Shown here: positions 48,114-62,832 of the stretch, piece after piece
How positions within the stretch are numbered: the first letter of the stretch is position 1
Layout: every line of letters starts with the position of its first letter
From: a virus
Lineage: Duplodnaviria; Caudoviricetes
Virus record (IMG/VR): IMGVR_UViG_3300037067_026718
Span: 64,001-128,000 of that record
Direction: 5' to 3' (one strand)
DNA: 64,000 bases
Notes under the pieces: model-generated
Told to the model about the DNA's origin: nothing
What the model saw: the letters and a program-made list of their open reading frames with translations, nothing else
Database searches by the model: none
Made by a program: the position numbers and the translations under genes

Positions 48114-51032
48114 TTACACCATATAGATCTTGATGTGACCACCATTGAAGGGCGGCGTTGCCAACCCCTCCACTTCCAGAAGAATCAGCGTCCTGTCATC
48201 CTCGTCGACCTGGAACTTGATCATGGTCAAGCTCTGGAGAGCGCCCTTTTTGTCGACGATGAAGTTCCTCGAAGCGGTGTAGATGGTGTTGAGAAGGGCC
48301 ATGCCCTTCGCATCCAGCTTGAGGGTTCCAACAACCGAGTCGAAGTTGGTGATCAGGACTGTACCAGCGTAGTCGAACTGGTGAACGATGCTCTGCTCCA
48401 TGGTATTGACGGATGACATGTCAGTGGTGACCTGATGGATGCTGTACAAGGGCGAGTTTTCGGTGTCCTGCCACACAGCCTCGATACCACCCGAGATCAG
48501 ATGGTCGAGCGTGGCTTCGTCCTTGAAGCCGTCATCGGGCAGCACAATGCCGGTGAAGAAGAAGTTGACCTTGGCCTTGGTATGGGGCATGCCGACGTCA
48601 TTGGAGGCTGCCAGCCTTGCGCACCAGTACACCTGCCAGTAGTACGAAGGAACGGTGTGAGTCGCCCCTCTGTAGGTCCCCTTGAGGAAGTGTGGCCAAA
48701 CAAGACGGAATGCCCTGTTGGCGTAACCTTCGGCATAGGCTTTGTAGAGGCATGCTTCGTCGTAGGCTGTGTAGTAAGCGTTGACCACCCGGTAAGTCCA
48801 GTCGGTCATGTCGACGTCGGGGGTCTTGCTGTAGAGCGTGAGAGCGTCGGTTGCCACTGTCTTGATCCTCAGTTGGTCAACCACTTCTCCATCGGCATCG
48901 GAAAGCTCGAGATACCCTCCGGCAATAACCTCTGAGTCCACGAAGTCCTGAGTGATATCGGTGAAGACCAGGTTGTCTTCCTGGCCGCCCGGTACGTCCT
49001 GGGTGTCAACGGCCACGTTCTCCGAGATCCTGGGGAACGAACCGTATCCGCAGACCATTCTCGCGGTGTCGGGATCCCTCATCCAGTTCACGAACAGTTC
49101 CAGGAGGGAGTTAATCTGTGTGTTCTGAACCAGTGATACGAAGGAGTAGGCTGTTTCGTACCGGTTGAAAGTCCTCAGGTAGGTCAATGTCTTGGCCCAC
49201 TCGGTTTCATCGCAGAGGGAGTTGTCGACGAAAGCTTCGGGGTCGGATTCGTCGGGGCAGGAGATGAAGACTTCCTCGGCAACCTGCAGCGCCAGCCAAG
49301 TCCCAAACGCGATGGGGTTGTCGGGCACGATCGCCTGATTGCCGCCCATGGTGTCGAGCAGATTGGACCGGGTGACCCGTATGCGGCTTTCGTTGAGGTC
49401 CCCCCTGAGGGCGTAGTAACCGACGAAAGCCTTTCCCTTGGCCGGAAGAACGATCTTGTAGTCGACATACTGAAGGTTCATCATCGCCGGCAAGGAGAAC
49501 GTGCCGAGAAGAAGGAGTGAACCGTCGTCCTGGAGAGCAACGTAGATGGGATCGCTTGCCGTACCGTCAGCACGGTAGAGAACCACCATGGAGTAACCGG
49601 TAACAAGCTCCATCTCCGAGAAGTCAACGGTGTCGTCGGAAAGGCTCATGTCCGTCTCGTCTATGACGCCGTTGGCTGCCCGGGCTACGATCTTGTAGTA
49701 GTCGAAGTCGCCGCCTACTTTGTCTCCTGCCAACGGCAATGTACCTTCGACCATAAGATTGGCGGCTACCGCGGTAATCCTCTTGATCGTTGTAGTGACT
49801 CCGTCGTCAGCTCCGCCCGTCATGCCTGAAGCCGTTACAGTGGTTTCAGTGAAGGTGATGTCGATGTTACCTGCAGCCGAGTTGTTCTGGTTCTCGAGAT
49901 CGGCCTGTTCGGAATCTACGCCGTTGACCAGTGCGTCGATTTCGAGTGTCGATGCGTTGATGGCGTCAACCAAATTGGAGATCATCAAGGTGTCATCGTT
50001 GACATCTGATGAATCTCTTTCGGTGGCGACCAGGGTATAGCCGGGAGTGAGGTTGGTTCCTGGGATCCCTCCACCGGTAAGGCCGGCAACGGTGATGTTG
50101 GCGCCGGCTGCGACTATGGCGACATCGCCATCAGCCGAGTGGAAGTTGTTCGCCACGTAGACGTACCCGCCACCCGGGGTGCTGACCACGAAGACATCGG
50201 ATGCCGCTACATGCTGCGCTGTGATTGCGTTGGCAAGGTTGGCCACTGTAGCCGGTATGTCAAGTCCGATGAGAACCGCTACGTTGCCGGGTCCCACTCC
50301 ACCGCCGAGACCGTCATCGAACTCGTACGTTACGGCAGGGTCACCGGTACCGTCATCGATGACAATGGTGTCTCCATCCGCAGGAAGGCCGGTGAGGAGG
50401 ATAAATCCAGTCGGACGGTTGCCGTGGTCGAACTGGAAGGTGACGGCATGGCCTTCTCCATCCTCTATGTGGACGATGCTGCCGTTTACGTATGTGTCGG
50501 CGTTGATAACGCCTTCAGCGGGATGGCCAATAGAGAACTGCCTGAGCATCAGGTAGTCACCTATCTTGGCGTCGGTGTCAGTGCTGAATCCTACGGCCAG
50601 ACTGGAATCCTGGAACTCAGAGGCTCCGACTCTCCAGTCGTAGGCCGGATCTCCGGAAGCTTCCACTTCGTCCTTGACCGGGGTTGTGGTCTGGTCGGAA
50701 GTCACGACCACGATTCCGTCTTTGATCGTGATGGAATCTCCCGTCACTTCCCAGTTGTCACCGTCTTCGTCAGGTATGATTTCCTCTTTGCCGTTGGCGT
50801 CGAGAACGATCTTTACTGTGACTTTGCTCGGTATCACAGTTGCCTGATCCATGATGTCCGGAATCGCTGCCACCAGGTCAGAGCTTCTGTCGTAGTCACC
50901 GATGTAGGCTCCAGTTTCAACCTGGGCCAGGTGACCTACAAGCTGGAGTCTCAGAGTCGACGGAAACCTCACCCTGGGGGTGGAGGCGTCAATGAACTCC
51001 ATCGACATATGCGGTCTGCGGTAATCACTCAT
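48114..51032 (-). CDS. Tail sheath protein with inserted domains
   Basis: N-terminal YRRP..; C-terminal LDHLISGG, HQVTTDMSSVNTMEQSIV..D, PPFN..HIKIY. Confidence 0.85.
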   Translation of the reverse strand: MSDYRRPHMSMEFIDASTPRVRFPSTLRLQLVGHLAQVETGAYIGDYDRSSDLVAAIPDIMDQATVIPSKVTVKIVLDANGKEEIIPDEDGDNWEVTGDSITIKDGIVVVTSDQTTTPVKDEVEASGDPAYDWRVGASEFQDSSLAVGFSTDTDAKIGDYLMLRQFSIGHPAEGVINADTYVNGSIVHIEDGEGHAVTFQFDHGNRPTGFILLTGLPADGDTIVIDDGTGDPAVTYEFDDGLGGGVGPGNVAVLIGLDIPATVANLANAITAQHVAASDVFVVSTPGGGYVYVANNFHSADGDVAIVAAGANITVAGLTGGGIPGTNLTPGYTLVATERDSSDVNDDTLMISNLVDAINASTLEIDALVNGVDSEQADLENQNNSAAGNIDITFTETTVTASGMTGGADDGVTTTIKRITAVAANLMVEGTLPLAGDKVGGDFDYYKIVARAANGVIDETDMSLSDDTVDFSEMELVTGYSMVVLYRADGTASDPIYVALQDDGSLLLLGTFSLPAMMNLQYVDYKIVLPAKGKAFVGYYALRGDLNESRIRVTRSNLLDTMGGNQAIVPDNPIAFGTWLALQVAEEVFISCPDESDPEAFVDNSLCDETEWAKTLTYLRTFNRYETAYSFVSLVQNTQINSLLELFVNWMRDPDTARMVCGYGSFPRISENVAVDTQDVPGGQEDNLVFTDITQDFVDSEVIAGGYLELSDADGEVVDQLRIKTVATDALTLYSKTPDVDMTDWTYRVVNAYYTAYDEACLYKAYAEGYANRAFRLVWPHFLKGTYRGATHTVPSYYWQVYWCARLAASNDVGMPHTKAKVNFFFTGIVLPDDGFKDEATLDHLISGGIEAVWQDTENSPLYSIHQVTTDMSSVNTMEQSIVHQFDYAGTVLITNFDSVVGTLKLDAKGMALLNTIYTASRNFIVDKKGALQSLTMIKFQVDEDDRTLILLEVEGLATPPFNGGHIKIYMV

Positions 51033-51721: not shown

Positions 51722-54553
51722 CTAAGCCTCTTCGACGACGACTGTCCAGCCATTGATCTCAAGGGCTGCCATAGCGGCCAAGCCTGTCGCACTCGGCACG
51801 GCATTGCCGCTGAGGTCGATGTAGCAGGGATCCACGACACCGTCGTCGGTACCATTCTCCATTCCGGTAGCGGTGATGGAAGTACCTGCTTCAGTAATGA
51901 CCACGTTCCCGGCTGCTCCACCGTGCTGGTTGACAAGGTCGATGACCAACGGGCTCAGCTCCCGCACAAGAGCATCAATGTCAAGCGCGGAGAGGTTGAT
52001 GGCATCGCAGAGGTTTGAAGTCGTTTCCTCTTCGTTGGCGGTCATGATCACAGGAATGTTCGGGGCTACCACGTTGTCCCCGGGATCCACTCCGCCGGAC
52101 ATCCCAACGAGCTGAAGATTGGCGCTCGTGGTTGTCATCAGTACGTTGCCTGCCTCGAGGTAAGCCGAGTTCTTGAGGGAACAGACATTGAGAAGACCTC
52201 CGGCTGCATCGAAATCAAGATGCCCCAGGCCGGCCTCAGCATCAATCGCAGCTCTGAGGGCAACGCAAGTAGCGTTTCCGATCGTCGAGTCCGCTCCTCC
52301 AGCCAACCCGACTACATCGAAGGTTGTACCGACCTCAACCATGGGAACGTCACCGGCCACTCCCGGAACGTCGTGCGTGATGTTGAGCTGTTCGTCGTCG
52401 ACTCCATCTACTTCCGATGTAATACTGATACCAGCGGCATTGATCGCCGTGTTCAGAGCTGATATGACAGCAGCTCCGTCAATTGCATCTGCCTTGCTTC
52501 TTTCAACAGCGATCAGGACATTGCCTTCGGTTACATTGGCCCCTGGAGCCGCTCCGTTGGAAAGGCCTACGACGCTGATGTTGACGCCGGAGCAAGTGAT
52601 GGCCACGTTGCCGTCTTCGCTGTGGAAGTTGCTTATGAGTTGGATGGTGTCGTCTCCAGCAACAGACGCTGCCCATACTTCCGATACATCGGATGAAGAA
52701 GCCAGATCGATGGCTGTTTGAAGGTTGTCTCTGGTCCCGGCGAGAGTACCGGCGATGAGTACTTCAACATGGCCGGGGATGATGCCTCCGCCGTCATCAA
52801 ACTCGTATGTCAGGGCTGGGTTGACGCCGTCATCAATCGTAATGGTATCTCCTGCCGACGGGATATCAGCAAGGGTTATGTGGCCAGTAGGCCGGTCTCC
52901 ATGATCGACCTGGAACACCACCGCAGGCACAAGACCATCCTCTACCTGAACAGTATCGGCATTCTGGTAAGCGCCATAATTGATCGTACCGCTTGAATGG
53001 ACGGCCGATGATCCCGGAGTGATTGCTACGGCAACATGGCCTGGCTCAACAGCAGCATTGTCATCGAACTCGAACACCACTGGGTCGTTGACTCCGTCAT
53101 CTATGGTGAGGATCTCACCATCACTGGGATTTGCTCTGTTACCGACGAGGTCTTCCAAAGTGATGGATCCAGTAGCCTGAGTACCTTCATCAAGCTCGAA
53201 GGTTTCTTCGATGCCTTGACCGTCGTCGATGGTCACTGAATCACCCGTGGTGATGTTACCGGTGTTGAGGGTAAGCGTTCCGTTGGCATGCACGGCCAGT
53301 GTTCCGGCCATGTCTTCCAGGATATCGTCGACCATGGCTTCAGTGAGGCCGAGGTCCTTGAGGCTCATGTCCCATCCACCGTGGCCGCTCCAGTCACCGC
53401 CGTCGGTATAGGCATCCACAGCGCATCCGTCGAGGACGAAAATGTATCCATCCGCAGCCGCCATGTCGATGAGATCCGCCACGTCTCCTTCGATGAGGGA
53501 CCCCGAGATGTCCAGGTAGGTATTGAGCGGGGTTGCAGCAATGATGGCCGCGAGATCTCCTTCGACCTGAGTGCCTCCAAGATCAAGGACAAGAAGCTCA
53601 TCCATCGCTGCCGTCATTGTTTCTGCCGAACCGATGAGAGTAACGCAGCCATGAGCCAAGAAAAACTGCATGGCTACCAATGTGGCAAGGTCGGCAGCGT
53701 CGCCTTCAATGGCACTGCCATCCATTCGAAGGTCTGTCATCGCTGTATACCCTGCGAGGTTGACAATGTCGCCTTCGATCGCGGTATCAACGATGTTGAG
53801 CTTTGTGAGGGCTGCGGATGCCGTTCCGCCAAGGGATGTCAAATTACCCACCACCTGAGTTCCCTCGAGGTCGATTTCCCTGAAACCTTCAAGCAAGGCA
53901 AGCTCGCTGATGTTGCCGCGGATGTTGCTGTTGGAGCAGTCGAGATAGCAGAGTTCTTCGACCTCGCTTGCTCCCCTCAGCGTGGTGCCGAGGAAAGACC
54001 GTATGCCGGAAAGGTAGAGGGAGATGATGCCGGCTCCTTCGTTGACAGCCGCAAGGGCTTTCATTCCTCCGGAGATCACTGTCCGGGTGCCGTTGACGTG
54101 GAGGGTCTCCAGCAGCGGAAGCTTTGTCAGGACTCCCAGATCGAACCTCACCACTGCCGGGGTTTCCCCGGAGATGTTCATCTGGATGCCGGTCACTATG
54201 GCATACTCGCCGCGGATCCTTATGGGGAACACGCCGGATGACCGGTAGTAATGAGTAACGGTCATGATCGCGTCATCAAAGACTGCGGATGTTACAGAGG
54301 CATCTCCCCATTCAATGGTGAGCTCAGTGCCGTCGTAATCCGGAGACGGGCTGAAAAACCTGAATGTGAGAGGAACCACCATTCCTTCGCCTTCGACTTC
54401 CACGGCATCGGCCATGTCGACGTCTGCACTGCAAAGGCTGGCGCTGATCAGATCGATCTGCTCCCGCCTTTTCCTGTTGCTCTGGTTTCTGGAAATGAAT
54501 GATTCCCTGACAACAGGGAACCGTGGAGATGCGTAAATGTCCCGGTCACTCAT
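51722..54553 (-). CDS. Virion surface protein: PKD-like domain + leucine-rich repeats + four nested repeat domains
   Basis: TIEWGD..VTHYY..GVFPIRI; LxxLxLxxTxIxGDI repeats; start ATG 54553 with GGAGG RBS. Confidence 0.8.
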   Translation of the reverse strand: MSDRDIYASPRFPVVRESFISRNQSNRKRREQIDLISASLCSADVDMADAVEVEGEGMVVPLTFRFFSPSPDYDGTELTIEWGDASVTSAVFDDAIMTVTHYYRSSGVFPIRIRGEYAIVTGIQMNISGETPAVVRFDLGVLTKLPLLETLHVNGTRTVISGGMKALAAVNEGAGIISLYLSGIRSFLGTTLRGASEVEELCYLDCSNSNIRGNISELALLEGFREIDLEGTQVVGNLTSLGGTASAALTKLNIVDTAIEGDIVNLAGYTAMTDLRMDGSAIEGDAADLATLVAMQFFLAHGCVTLIGSAETMTAAMDELLVLDLGGTQVEGDLAAIIAATPLNTYLDISGSLIEGDVADLIDMAAADGYIFVLDGCAVDAYTDGGDWSGHGGWDMSLKDLGLTEAMVDDILEDMAGTLAVHANGTLTLNTGNITTGDSVTIDDGQGIEETFELDEGTQATGSITLEDLVGNRANPSDGEILTIDDGVNDPVVFEFDDNAAVEPGHVAVAITPGSSAVHSSGTINYGAYQNADTVQVEDGLVPAVVFQVDHGDRPTGHITLADIPSAGDTITIDDGVNPALTYEFDDGGGIIPGHVEVLIAGTLAGTRDNLQTAIDLASSSDVSEVWAASVAGDDTIQLISNFHSEDGNVAITCSGVNISVVGLSNGAAPGANVTEGNVLIAVERSKADAIDGAAVISALNTAINAAGISITSEVDGVDDEQLNITHDVPGVAGDVPMVEVGTTFDVVGLAGGADSTIGNATCVALRAAIDAEAGLGHLDFDAAGGLLNVCSLKNSAYLEAGNVLMTTTSANLQLVGMSGGVDPGDNVVAPNIPVIMTANEEETTSNLCDAINLSALDIDALVRELSPLVIDLVNQHGGAAGNVVITEAGTSITATGMENGTDDGVVDPCYIDLSGNAVPSATGLAAMAALEINGWTVVVEEA

Positions 54554-54612
54554 GATTTCTACCTCCGTTTTCTGGGCCGCAGGGCCCAACTGCTTACAAT
54601 GGGCACGCCTTC

Positions 54613-55935: not shown

Positions 55936-56604
55936 CTACTGGTTGGTCGTAAGAACGATGGCTCCGTAGTAATCCATGGTTTTCTGCAGCAGCTCGGTCC
56001 AGGGCTCTGCGCCGTTGGCTTCCTTTATCCTGGCCTCGAAAGCCTTGGTGACGAAGTCCACGATGTCAGCTTTCTTGGTGAGCTGCTTGTCGATGTCGAT
56101 GGCGTACTCTTCCGCAAAAGCTTTGATCTCTTTTACGGTGAGCTTGGCAAAATGCTCACTGGTGTCCATGATGCCATCGTTTTCCCCGGGAGCGATGGGC
56201 TCCTTTTCAGGCTCGATTGCTTCTGTCGGAGCGACCGTTTCCGCCTGGCGTTCTTCCCGCTCTTCGTCGGCGCCCATGTCTACGATGCCGGCGAGGTCAC
56301 TTATGGAAGTGGTCTTCCTGAGCTTCTGGGCTTCGTCAACCTCTTCCTTCTCGATCGTTTCCTCGATGGCCTTCATCTCTTCACGGCTCTTCGCCCTCTT
56401 GAGAACGGAGTAGTTGGCCGAAGAAGGTTTTTCAACGACGGCTGTCTCGTTCTTCTCGGCATCAATCTCTTCCTGCCGGGACTTGAACCTGGTTACGCTC
56501 GATGGATACAGGGATTTCTTGGGACGTGCAGGCGGATCGGCAACCGGAGTCCTCATGGAGCGTCTGTCGGTGCGTCCCACTCTTTTCATGCGTTCAACTG
56601 ACAT
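55936..56604 (-). CDS. Charged protein with a Rho-N/SAP-like motif
   Basis: LTVKEIKAFAEEYAIDI..TKKADIV. Confidence 0.6.
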   Translation of the reverse strand: MSVERMKRVGRTDRRSMRTPVADPPARPKKSLYPSSVTRFKSRQEEIDAEKNETAVVEKPSSANYSVLKRAKSREEMKAIEETIEKEEVDEAQKLRKTTSISDLAGIVDMGADEEREERQAETVAPTEAIEPEKEPIAPGENDGIMDTSEHFAKLTVKEIKAFAEEYAIDIDKQLTKKADIVDFVTKAFEARIKEANGAEPWTELLQKTMDYYGAIVLTTNQ

Positions 56605-60147: not shown

Positions 60148-62832
60148 TTACTTTCCGATGGGACGCAACCCCTCGAAAGACTTGTATGCACCGCCCAATC
60201 GGACGGCTGCGATTTTGGGATCTTCCTTATCGTTGTAGCTCCCTTCAGCGTACTCCTTTATTCTTGACTGACAGGCAACTACGAGGTCGGCTCGTTTGTA
60301 GAACTCATTCTGCCAGTCGGTGTTCATGAAGGTGGCAACCACATGTTTGGCGTAGTCGCTTGAAACCATGGGGGCGCCATGGGCTACTTTCTCCATTGAA
60401 GCTGTTTTCTGCCTTGTCAGGTCGAAGCGAGGTAAAAAAGAACGGACAGGCAGGAATGGAGCAAGCAACTGGGCGACCTTGTAGTTGTAGGCTACTCTCC
60501 GCATGGGGACGTTCTTCACCGATGCCATCTTGGGGGACAGCATGATGGTAACGTGCTTCTTGATCACGATCGCCCTGGGCTTGTCACCGCTTTTGAGCGC
60601 ATCGATGACAGCGTATTCCTTGGGCATGACGTGCATCCCCATCAAGCCAGCCGTATCGAAGATGTCCTCGAAAGGATGCGATGCCAGTGCTTCGCATGTC
60701 TCCATCGGAAGCTCCGGAGTAATGGCGTCCTGGTAGCCCTCGGACTCCTTTTTGTCCTTGCTTTCCACGGAGACATCGGCGGTTATGTCTTCAGGGGAAG
60801 CTTTTTCTATTTCAGCTTCCTTGCTCTTGGCTGCTTCCTTGAAGAAGAGTGCTCCTGCATCGGCAGAGAAACCGGTGAAGTATACAGTTGTTCCTATGCC
60901 GGCAGCCTTGTTGAGCTCCTGGATGACATTGGTTCCTTTGTCCGCTCTGGTGAAGACGAAACTCTGGTCGAAGAAAGTCGGCTTTGTGTTGTGAACGCAA
61001 GTGATCCTTCCCCGGTTCGCCATGTCGTTGTAAGGATGGAACTGAAGAAGATGGTTCTTCGCGTGGTCACAGTACTCGGCCCGGGTCTTGGCTTTCTTGC
61101 CGCAGATGGAGCAGACGTCATAAGGAACCCTGCAGTTGTGAACAGCGATGCCATCCAATAGATAACTTTCGTCGTCAGAGACAGCAAAGTTATAGACATC
61201 ATCATCATATGGAACAACTTCATTCTCCTCAACAGGCGTAATGAGATACAGGACATCGTCTATCATGGAAAAGAATCTCTTGTTGTTTATTGTCTTCGAT
61301 CTTCCCAGTATATGTGATGACCGGTGAAGTCGATACGCTGTATCGGTTCCAATCCATATCTGATACTCTATAGTCTGCTTGCGTACCAGAGATCGTGGGC
61401 CCGGCTTATGAACTATGACATTAACAGAAGAGATCATCATACATCTAAGCAATATGATTTGTAGTTGCTTTGCAAGCTGGAAGGATGCTGTTGATAGATA
61501 GATGGAACCTTGATAGCAACCACCATCTCCATTAGCGTAAGCTCCCAAAAACTCTTGGAGGCTTTCTTCCTCAGCACCCATAATCGATGATGACAACGTC
61601 TTGCTGGTAGAGCCAACACCGCAATGTTCAATGCATAGTTCGGTAAAAGACCGATCATAAATGGTGATGTACTTACCATTTCGCTCTTCGATGTCACGCT
61701 CTGTGACAGAAGTGAACCCCATACGCTCTGCTAAAGACAGTATTTCTTGATGTATAGATGTCTCATGCAAACCTGTGCAGAATTGCACAGCCATGGGAGT
61801 TCCAGCCTTTGTATAGAGAGGACATCCTTCGGCTAGATAGTACCCCAAAAGGCGGCTTTCGTCGACAGAGAATTTCCTTGCAGCATCAAAAGTAGGTACT
61901 GGCGTTAGTAGGCGATCACCTATATCTACTTCATCAGCTCTGATCCATTCTGGCCTATATTTTATTTGTGTTTTGCAGGAAACGCAGCCTGACTTAATAA
62001 AAGGGCTATCTGGAGTACAGACCTGCTGACGACGTCCGCGGTTTATGTCGTTACTAGATGGTTTGCATAGAATTTGGTCAGATCTCAGAACCAAGAGGGG
62101 ATGTTCGTCTGTTAGAATGAGAGGATCACGGTTTCCATATACTTTGATATGATGAATATTGCCCCGGTGTTTACGTACCATTGTTGTAGTGACGGATTTC
62201 GGTACTCCTCTATGCGTTATCACTTTGTCACCAGAGGAGATTGTTTCGATGGGAACGTATTGACCATCGGAAGATAGAATCATTGATCCCTTTGGTACGC
62301 AGCCCATGCTGACATCCGGAAACTTGCCGCTTCTGATCCTGGCTATGATCTCGATCGACTTGCTGATGTCTTTGTCCAACCTGGATATGACCTCGATCCT
62401 GTGCATCTTGAGGTTGTAGCCCGTGGCTATGACCTTGCCAATACTCAGCTTTGGATCGCTGTTGTTATGAAGCAGGAAGGGATGGGCGTTGGTGAAAGTC
62501 CTGTAGTAACCATCATAGTAGATGTTCTGCTCTGGGAAGCTGTCCCCGTTGTTGTTGGGGCCGTAGTACTCGAAGGCCGACACGATGTTGATGTGAGTGT
62601 AGACATGCTTGTCGAAGTCGGGGTCGCAGTCATGCCAGAACTGGGCAAGCTCGTCGGGCATGACAGACAGGTCCATAGTGCTGTCCAGATCGGCTGATGC
62701 CATCTTGGCCATCGATTCCCTGGAAAGCAAAAGATGCATCCTGGGGCTGCCGAGAGGGTCATGGCTGCCAACGTTGACCAGTTTGATCATTCCGCCATCG
62801 GTTGGCATCGTCATCAGTACCTTCCGCTCCAT
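60148..62832 (-). CDS. Prohead maturation protease (intein-split) with a Zn finger and a K-x-A-rich C-terminal region
   Basis: NNNGDSF, PFLLHNN (His), IGKVI, DVSMG (Ser), CSICG..YCDH; position before scaffold and capsid genes. Confidence 0.75.
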   Translation of the reverse strand: MERKVLMTMPTDGGMIKLVNVGSHDPLGSPRMHLLLSRESMAKMASADLDSTMDLSVMPDELAQFWHDCDPDFDKHVYTHINIVSAFEYYGPNNNGDSFPEQNIYYDGYYRTFTNAHPFLLHNNSDPKLSIGKVIATGYNLKMHRIEVISRLDKDISKSIEIIARIRSGKFPDVSMGCVPKGSMILSSDGQYVPIETISSGDKVITHRGVPKSVTTTMVRKHRGNIHHIKVYGNRDPLILTDEHPLLVLRSDQILCKPSSNDINRGRRQQVCTPDSPFIKSGCVSCKTQIKYRPEWIRADEVDIGDRLLTPVPTFDAARKFSVDESRLLGYYLAEGCPLYTKAGTPMAVQFCTGLHETSIHQEILSLAERMGFTSVTERDIEERNGKYITIYDRSFTELCIEHCGVGSTSKTLSSSIMGAEEESLQEFLGAYANGDGGCYQGSIYLSTASFQLAKQLQIILLRCMMISSVNVIVHKPGPRSLVRKQTIEYQIWIGTDTAYRLHRSSHILGRSKTINNKRFFSMIDDVLYLITPVEENEVVPYDDDVYNFAVSDDESYLLDGIAVHNCRVPYDVCSICGKKAKTRAEYCDHAKNHLLQFHPYNDMANRGRITCVHNTKPTFFDQSFVFTRADKGTNVIQELNKAAGIGTTVYFTGFSADAGALFFKEAAKSKEAEIEKASPEDITADVSVESKDKKESEGYQDAITPELPMETCEALASHPFEDIFDTAGLMGMHVMPKEYAVIDALKSGDKPRAIVIKKHVTIMLSPKMASVKNVPMRRVAYNYKVAQLLAPFLPVRSFLPRFDLTRQKTASMEKVAHGAPMVSSDYAKHVVATFMNTDWQNEFYKRADLVVACQSRIKEYAEGSYNDKEDPKIAAVRLGGAYKSFEGLRPIGK
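61135..62301 (-). mobile_element. Intein with LAGLIDADG homing endonuclease (389 aa)
   Basis: CVPKGS start, LTDEHP block B, LLGYYLAEG and FLGAYANGDG, VYNFAV..AVHN|C end; visibly more AT-rich than its flanks. Confidence 0.93.

Follow-up and report, generated by a model that had tools for sequence, protein, structure and literature searches.

A gene on the minus strand of a 64-kb window of viral DNA (the whole stretch analyzed here, 64,000 nucleotides of the Caudoviricetes record IMGVR_UViG_3300037067_026718) encodes what is probably a phage particle protein, and we consider it about 85% probable that this protein contains four copies of one domain that are nested within one another, not arranged in tandem, as inserted copies within the last unit of a leucine-rich repeat (LRR) solenoid. 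Multi-domain proteins mostly grow by the addition of domains at their ends. In this protein, a single fold has been placed inside itself to a depth of four levels, with up to seven in relatives, providing a natural series of depths 1, 2, 3, 4, 5 and 7. Evidence for nesting comes from a predicted structure and structure alignments to it, a homologous two-level cassette in the tail sheath protein of the same phage, and the arrangements seen in relatives.

Order and pairing of the half-domains

The nest occupies residues 432-914 of the open reading frame (ORF), corresponding to 51848..53296 of the window, and consists of pieces of a single ~115-aa alpha/beta domain, arranged as three N-terminal halves (A1-A2-A3), an intact central copy (A4+B4, together D4) and three C-terminal halves (B3-B2-B1), with D1 to D3 denoting the domains formed by rejoining each A with the B of the same number (Table 1). 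A preliminary description of the sequence had claimed the order A1-A2-A3-A4-B4-B3-B2-B1 over positions 51840-53290. This order is borne out by the location of all elements in a single ORF, by local alignments against shuffled controls (z of 3.5-14 for A-A pairs and 4.2-7.7 for B-B pairs) and by profile matches, and the element boundaries differ from the claimed span by only a few bases. The domain profile was derived from 54 uninterrupted copies from relatives, including D4 of the window and the intact copy in the sheath gene, and no halves. Searching the window's own genome with this profile detected both pieces of the sheath cassette besides the nest elements, with A3, which has pairwise z scores of 3.5-11, recovered only at a looser hmmsearch threshold. 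The break points are complementary, also as claimed: D2 is divided between profile positions 54 and 55, with A2 (four strands assigned by DSSP in the nest model described below) covering 2-54 and B2 covering 55-115; A1 and A3 reach as far as 36-40, and their counterparts B1 and B3 begin at 36. After rejoining of the halves, the four domains are 119, 126, 124 and 114 aa in length, the size of an intact copy. The nest region contains no long DNA repeats, only chance-level matches of 15-26 nt, and the copies and the insertion events are therefore taken to be old.

An arrangement of this kind might conceivably result from an assembly or gene-calling artefact, such as contig chimerism or the joining of several genes by a frameshift, and the source genome is indeed metagenome-derived, comprising 295 contigs with 6.4% contamination. 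Such an origin is hardly credible for a single open frame of 955 codons, in a region free of long DNA repeats, whose seven elements occur in the same order in four independent metagenomic relatives (53-79% identity over nest and tail).

Complementarity of the breaks cannot by itself separate nested pairing from crossing pairing, since the odd domain, D2, is the middle one of the three that are split. As a test of nested versus crossing pairing in 40 relatives, it gave mean absolute gaps of 4.4 versus 5.4, a difference too small to be useful, and was dropped. Pairing was examined in an AlphaFold2 model of residues 400-955 (556 aa), generated with its own 55-row alignment of nests. The model has a predicted local distance difference test score (pLDDT) of 89.7 and a predicted template modeling score of 0.69, with pLDDT >90 through nearly all of residues 439-914. 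When the halves are taken as nested pairs, every domain holds each structural element exactly once, from strands 1-3 and strand 4 through the helix to strands 5-8. Structure alignment of 48,161 PDB chains to this model places single-domain chains on four concentric ranges, which in model numbering are 165-283 (D4), 129-368 (D3), 70-438 (D2) and 33-516 (D1). D3 is matched by 8kee_A (89 aa at a root-mean-square deviation (rmsd) of 2.0, model 131-363, Z 10.5), D2 by 6iwy_A (101 aa, model 72-435, Z 7.4), and D1 by four chains across model 33-516 (71-77 residues, Z 4.0-4.9). No PDB chain aligned to any crossing range, such as 33-363 or 131-515. The sheath cassette contains one N-half and one C-half, so that its pairing is forced, and it is collinear with A3-A4-B4-B3, with sheath residues 172-409 and nest residues 532-767 sharing 45% identity over 239 aa (E 2e-54). 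The concentric model ranges and the collinear cassette together support the recursive domain insertion suggested in the preliminary description.

An alternative is that the region comprises two tandem arrays, of four beta-hairpin repeats and four helix-plus-sheet repeats, which fold independently or pair in sequence order. The break points found here would suit crossing pairing as well as nested pairing, and giant proteins of 2,000-8,000 aa do carry partial matches to the domain in tandem. However, an A half joined directly to a B half is predicted to form one compact domain (D4, pLDDT 94.9), the model ranges are all concentric with no PDB domain on a crossing range, the sheath cassette imposes A3-B3 type pairing by homology and behaves as one insertion-deletion unit, and some arrangements in relatives, such as an N-half, two intact copies and a C-half in succession, are sensible only as insertions. 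Tandem arrays are thus very improbable.

The sheath cassette, relatives and the putatively split host repeat

The nest gene lies two genes upstream of a tail sheath gene (P0002; 48114..51032, -), in which the two-level cassette consists of an N-half, an intact copy and a C-half. The sheath identity of P0002 is taken from an Atlas structure search, in which residues ~540-972 of the Atlas model match Phage_sheath_1 and Phage_sheath_1C clusters with TM (template modeling) scores of 0.51-0.53 by query and 0.59-0.77 by row. P0002 has no Pfam or PDB sequence match. A BLASTP comparison of P0002 with a Pfam-positive sheath was rejected as proof of identity, having matched only within the nest. In a contig from a related phage (L009), an LRR-nest gene is followed by a gene for a 199-aa protein and then by a gene for a 735-aa sheath (L009:11534-13741), which is 57% identical to P0002 at residues 4-171 and 66% identical at residues 415-972, and has 4 residues in the place of the 243-residue cassette of P0002. 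Because the absence of the cassette from this sheath is exact, the two-level cassette was gained or lost as a unit.

In a maximum-likelihood tree built from the rejoined domains of the sheath and four orthologues, one clade (99/99) unites D1 and D3 with the outer domain of the sheath, and the sheath inner domain lies within the D4 clade (97/92). The break site at ~36/37 is common to D1, D3 and the sheath outer domain, and D2 is broken at 54/55. The simplest reading of these sequences would be that the four-level nest arose when a two-level cassette entered a paralogous cassette, at a point just past strand 4 of the latter's inner domain. In the proposed mechanism, whole copies would be spliced into the loop after strand 3 (profile ~36/37) or after strand 4 (~54/55), which would require the two ends of the inserted copy to lie close together, a requirement deduced from the insertions and not from coordinates. 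A cassette of the form outer(inner) would then enter the inner domain of its paralogue to give four levels, with D4 in a loop of D3, D3 in a loop of D2 and D2 in a loop of D1.

The arrangement of the domain in relatives was written as words, in which N denotes an N-half, F an intact copy and C a C-half, counted among proteins of up to 1300 aa. The words comprise 27 NNFCC, 9 NNNFCCC, 7 NFC and 3 NFFC, in addition to two words each of depths 5 and 7, and alignment with MAFFT places the relatives concentrically around the intact copy. The preliminary description had called nesting rare at this depth and had suggested a survey of homologues. The survey found depths of 2, 3, 4, 5 and 7, and the claim of rarity fails within the domain family, where a depth of 3 is the commonest and depths of 5 and 7 occur. 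Relatives of ~870-890 aa that possess a nest also carry Gp18_domIII_N and Phage_sheath_1C. One of the relatives, P0009 (L010:6001-9186, 1061 aa), contains a seven-level nest and one further intact copy, and its gene lies three genes upstream of genes for a T4-like prohead protease (Peptidase_S77) and Gp23; deep nests are therefore present in head-module proteins as well, perhaps as capsid fibers. In a separate group of relatives (P0035-P0039, ~595 aa), the N-half follows a leading C-half (C N F x) in a word that does not parse as a nest; these proteins may be circularly permuted, or their host domain may be another one. Two further Atlas searches were uninformative, with a best score of 0.77 in a feature search on P0003 and TM scores of at most 0.31 in a shape search with the nest model.

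Among orthologues, the flanks of the nest are 83-100% identical, and the nest itself 44-93%. For example, the orthologue P0005, from a 2.7-kb JGI contig, is 94% identical in the LRR and 100% in the pre-nest flank, with 61, 53, 60 and 44% identity in D1 to D4, a mosaic suggesting that the nest has either been exchanged as a cassette or diverged very fast. Nowhere is the nest protein more conserved among orthologues than in its two flanks (residues 401-431 and 915-955). When residues 250-432 and 914-955 were presented as two chains, they were predicted to pack against each other with a score of 0.61, compared with 0.01 for the best of three controls, with at least 98% of contacts agreeing between runs and a partner pLDDT of at least 74. 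Of 80 solved complexes, 58 attain the mark used for packing, as do 2 of 110 mismatched pairs; these counts apply only roughly here because our own alignments were used. The predicted contacts involve strand 408-412 with 924-928, and helix 417-424 against 930-943; in the model of the nest alone, the flanks are of low confidence. The prediction supports a fit of the pre- and post-nest pieces into a further LRR-like turn, and speaks to fit and not to binding because one chain was cut in two. The claim that the stack splits the end of the LRR is thus supported by this model, together with the conservation of the flanks.

Several points weigh against the reading of four nested copies within an LRR unit. 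All of its structural support is predicted, with pairing read from the first and last aligned residues and not from contacts, and the alignment supplied to AlphaFold2 is itself concentric and may favor nesting. The structural matches to D1 are weak, as seen from their Z scores. In the tree, D2 falls on the inner-type side without grouping firmly with D4. Of the 91 relatives with split halves, 38 were not parsed as balanced words, most being one element off, probably due to missed halves of ~35 aa. The LRR assignment depends on a sub-threshold Pfam match. Searches for un-nested LRR relatives found none for residues 60-440 and, with the tail, gave only orthologue fragments; no un-nested LRR homologue was found showing an ancestral, uninterrupted cap. 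Finally, the rod shape, exposure and function of the nest are putative.

The domain family and the genome setting

The intact copy, D4, is predicted by AlphaFold2 to consist of four strands, a 17-residue helix packed on the sheet, and four further strands. A Foldseek search of the PDB with the D4 model gave nothing at E <= 0.001. By VIA-align, its matches include the outer domains of contractile-tail sheaths, from cyanophage A-1(L) (8kee_A, Z 9.4, rmsd 2.7, 93 aa), Mu (9khy_a, Z 8.7) and PhiTE (9cb9, Z 8.3), the head domain of FliD (5fhy_B, Z 8.2) and a flagellin outer domain (Z 7.7), as well as T4 gp11 and T7-type nozzle proteins. These top values are slightly above the usual best Z of this tool, which is 7-8. 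On the basis of the model, we claim that the domain shares a fold class with the sheath outer domain and with the D2/D3 domains of FliD and flagellin; because the Z values barely exceed the usual best, kinship with domains of the sheath-outer or FliD type is likely but unproven. A weak link in sequence leads to the sheath protein gp20 of phage Milano (E 0.0034). The Pfam family matched by most copies is Flagellin_IN (PF07196), which matches 4 of the 54 copies, with a best E of 8.3e-4, and does not match D4 of the window. No RNA polymerase or sandwich-barrel hybrid motif (SBHM) chain is among the listed structure matches of D4 and the nest, although an absent match does not exclude that family.

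No curated Pfam or PHROG model covers the domain, for which an exhaustive HMMER search found 4,276 representative proteins at E <= 0.001, and matches of the fold in BFVD are phage proteins of the baseplate, tail, capsid and sheath, besides unnamed ones. The domain points to a large family that lacks a curated model, adorns the sheath, baseplate, tail and head, passes between genes in cassette form, and changes far more quickly than the proteins that carry it. Searches of PDB sequences with the nest and with the sheath gave no usable match, and a tblastn search with the nest against 50,697 phage records gave no match. In the family, giant proteins of 2,000-8,000 aa, such as P0058, P0061, P0082 and P0100, contain 10-20 partial matches, spanning profile positions ~10-90, in tandem and not nested, which are probably a related, shorter repeat in head-to-tail order.

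Table 1. Features of the nest gene and the sheath cassette; positions are those of the window, and residues are numbered along the open frame.
Feature	Window position	Strand	Residues	Description
Whole gene	51722..54553	-		943 aa from the ATG at residue 13; from ORF list and translation
PKD-like beta domain	54185..54409	-	61-135	Motif IEWGD...THYY...G.F.I.I; by eye from the translation only
LRR solenoid	53390..54184	-	136-400	Repeats of ~24 aa
Pre-nest half of last LRR unit/cap	53297..53389	-	401-431	...MSLKDLGLTEAMVDDILEDMAGTL; 97-100% identical in orthologues
A1	53183..53296	-	432-469	N-half of outermost domain D1, strands 1-3; profile 2-41, E 1.1e-5
A2	53009..53182	-	470-527	N-half of D2, strands 1-4 including PGHVAVAI; profile 2-54, E 3.8e-15
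A3	52895..53008	-	528-565	N-half of D3, strands 1-3; profile 3-36 at residues 532-564
D4 (A4+B4)	52553..52894	-	566-679	Intact innermost copy; E 2.8e-33; presumed tip
B3	52295..52552	-	680-765	C-half of D3, strand 4, helix, strands 5-8; profile 36-116, E 9.0e-11
B2	52091..52294	-	766-833	C-half of D2, begins at the helix, without strand 4; profile 55-115, E 2.3e-6
B1	51848..52090	-	834-914	C-half of D1; profile 36-116, E 8.3e-12
Post-nest half of last LRR unit/cap	51725..51847	-	915-955	...CYIDLSGNAVPSATGLAAMAALEINGWTVVVEEA; 83-98% identical in orthologues
Two-level sheath cassette	49791..50519	-	172-414 of sheath	N-half, intact copy, C-half; in sheath gene 48114..51032 (-)

The open frame of the nest protein (P0001) extends over 51722..54589 (-) without interruption, with a probable ATG at 54553, a choice supported by database relatives of 942-952 aa, in which the equivalent Met is the start. 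The protein contains a short N-terminal part, the PKD-like domain, the LRR solenoid, and the nest within the last LRR unit. The solenoid comprises about eleven LRR-like repeats, in which a regular pattern L..L.L..T.IEGD is visible, and has a weak match to Pfam LRR_4 (E 8.7e-4, 19.9 bits, under the curated cut-off of 27). Scans of P0001, P0002 and ten neighboring proteins with Pfam and PHROGs were almost empty, returning the sub-threshold LRR_4 match and endonuclease VII-like and intein matches; P0001 and P0002 are covered by no Pfam or PHROG model.

Every large ORF of the window is on the minus strand, and no tRNA genes were found in it. The window corresponds to bases 64001-128000 of contig 3 of a 4.85-Mb genome (the source genome mentioned above), and almost none of the twelve window proteins scanned has a Pfam or PHROG match. 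The window looks to come from a large phage of high divergence, which may have been binned together with this genome or may be an integrated prophage. An 894-aa ORF at 60148-62832 (-) matches LAGLIDADG_3 (E 4.1e-6), Intein_splicing (2e-5) and PT-HINT (3.3e-4), with the same intein-type matches present at the equivalent place in the contig of a relative, and is probably a head or packaging gene interrupted by an intein that carries a homing endonuclease. A 222-aa ORF located among structural genes, at 55936-56604 (-), has a weak endonuclease VII-like PHROG match (phrog_3281, E 9.6e-5).

A putative surface arm and known systems

The nest would project from the end of the LRR as a chain of beads, doubly connected and tipped by D4, and would be exposed on the virion and evolve or be exchanged fast, providing a reach or adhesion arm of adjustable length. 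It is probably such an exposed, fast-evolving, out-and-back arm, a reading on which three observations bear: the nest varies far more than the protein that hosts it, the fold is found on many particle proteins, and P0009 is encoded beside head genes. The main rival to the arm is an inert spacer or strut, with binding located in the LRR and the nest setting a distance or acting as a brace, e.g. against the sheath cassette. Conservation is much higher in the LRR and split cap than in the nest, as expected if the former bear the specific contacts; a homologous cassette is present on the sheath of the same phage, and the two could meet on the particle; and the depth of the nest varies freely among relatives, like a length-setting element. 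We nevertheless regard a spacer as rather unlikely, since identities of 44-45% in D4, where the LRR is 70-94% identical, are more like diversifying pressure or exchange than a neutral strut.

Beyond the arm itself, we tentatively propose, as an idea with somewhat better prospects than the spacer though still short of even odds, that the domain family is a self-embedding building block. A two-level cassette would be copied into its own loop or into other particle genes (those of the LRR protein, the sheath and head-module proteins), tuning the length of a surface arm from 1 to at least 7 beads with both chain ends at the base. If true, this would constitute a general and so far undescribed viral route to length-adjustable, doubly tethered surface appendages. 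The series of depths may be useful for studies of folding, of the stiffness of doubly connected domain chains, and of the choice of insertion sites. For engineering, the nested cassette with its permissive loops could serve as a scaffold that displays a domain at a set distance with both termini at the base.

The nest resembles, and also differs from, several known systems. In the T4 tail sheath protein gp18, domain I lies within domain II, which lies within domain III, the three having different folds. The nest protein shares with gp18 a Russian-doll growth by insertion on the outer face of a virion protein, but grows by insertion of a single domain into copies of itself. The outer domains of the A-1(L) (8kee, residues 92-184), Mu (9khy) and PhiTE (9cb9) sheaths have the same fold (rmsd 2.0-2.7 over 89-93 aa) and are likewise borne as insertions on the outside of a virion protein, and the neighboring sheath gene of the window has two copies. 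Unlike the solved sheath chains, which have one matching region each, the nest has four copies within each other, and its host is an LRR protein. Growth of sheath proteins by insertions is known (PMC9230969).

The outer domains of FliD and flagellin belong to the same fold class (5fhy Z 8.2, 6iwy Z 7.4-7.6, 4nx9 Z 7.7-7.9, 9au6 Z 4.8), and homology of the nest domain to them is weakly supported by sequence. In the Geovibrio thiophilus flagellin (9au6), D5 is a duplicate of D4 inserted in a D4 loop, and D4 resembles FliD D2 (PMC11532411). The principle of self-insertion is thus the same, but in Geovibrio it reaches a depth of 2 in a bacterial filament, compared with a depth of 4, and up to 7 in relatives, on a phage particle. 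The closest precedent for deep nesting is Si3 of cyanobacterial RNA polymerase, which contains eight SBHM motifs, four of them assembled from distant parts of the chain, in an elongated arm of 150 angstrom (PMC10895346). Both systems repeat a small motif non-tandemly, but Si3 differs in host protein and in role (the polymerase trigger loop), apparently also in fold, and provides no evidence of a portable two-level cassette; by analogy, the nest protein may work like Si3, and is not treated as its relative. The open-access literature searched, including that on nested insertion in sheaths or flagellins, contains nothing describing four to seven levels for this domain, or an origin by insertion of one cassette in another. 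The nested architecture is both real and uncommon, and the principle of self-insertion on which it is built has published structural precedents.

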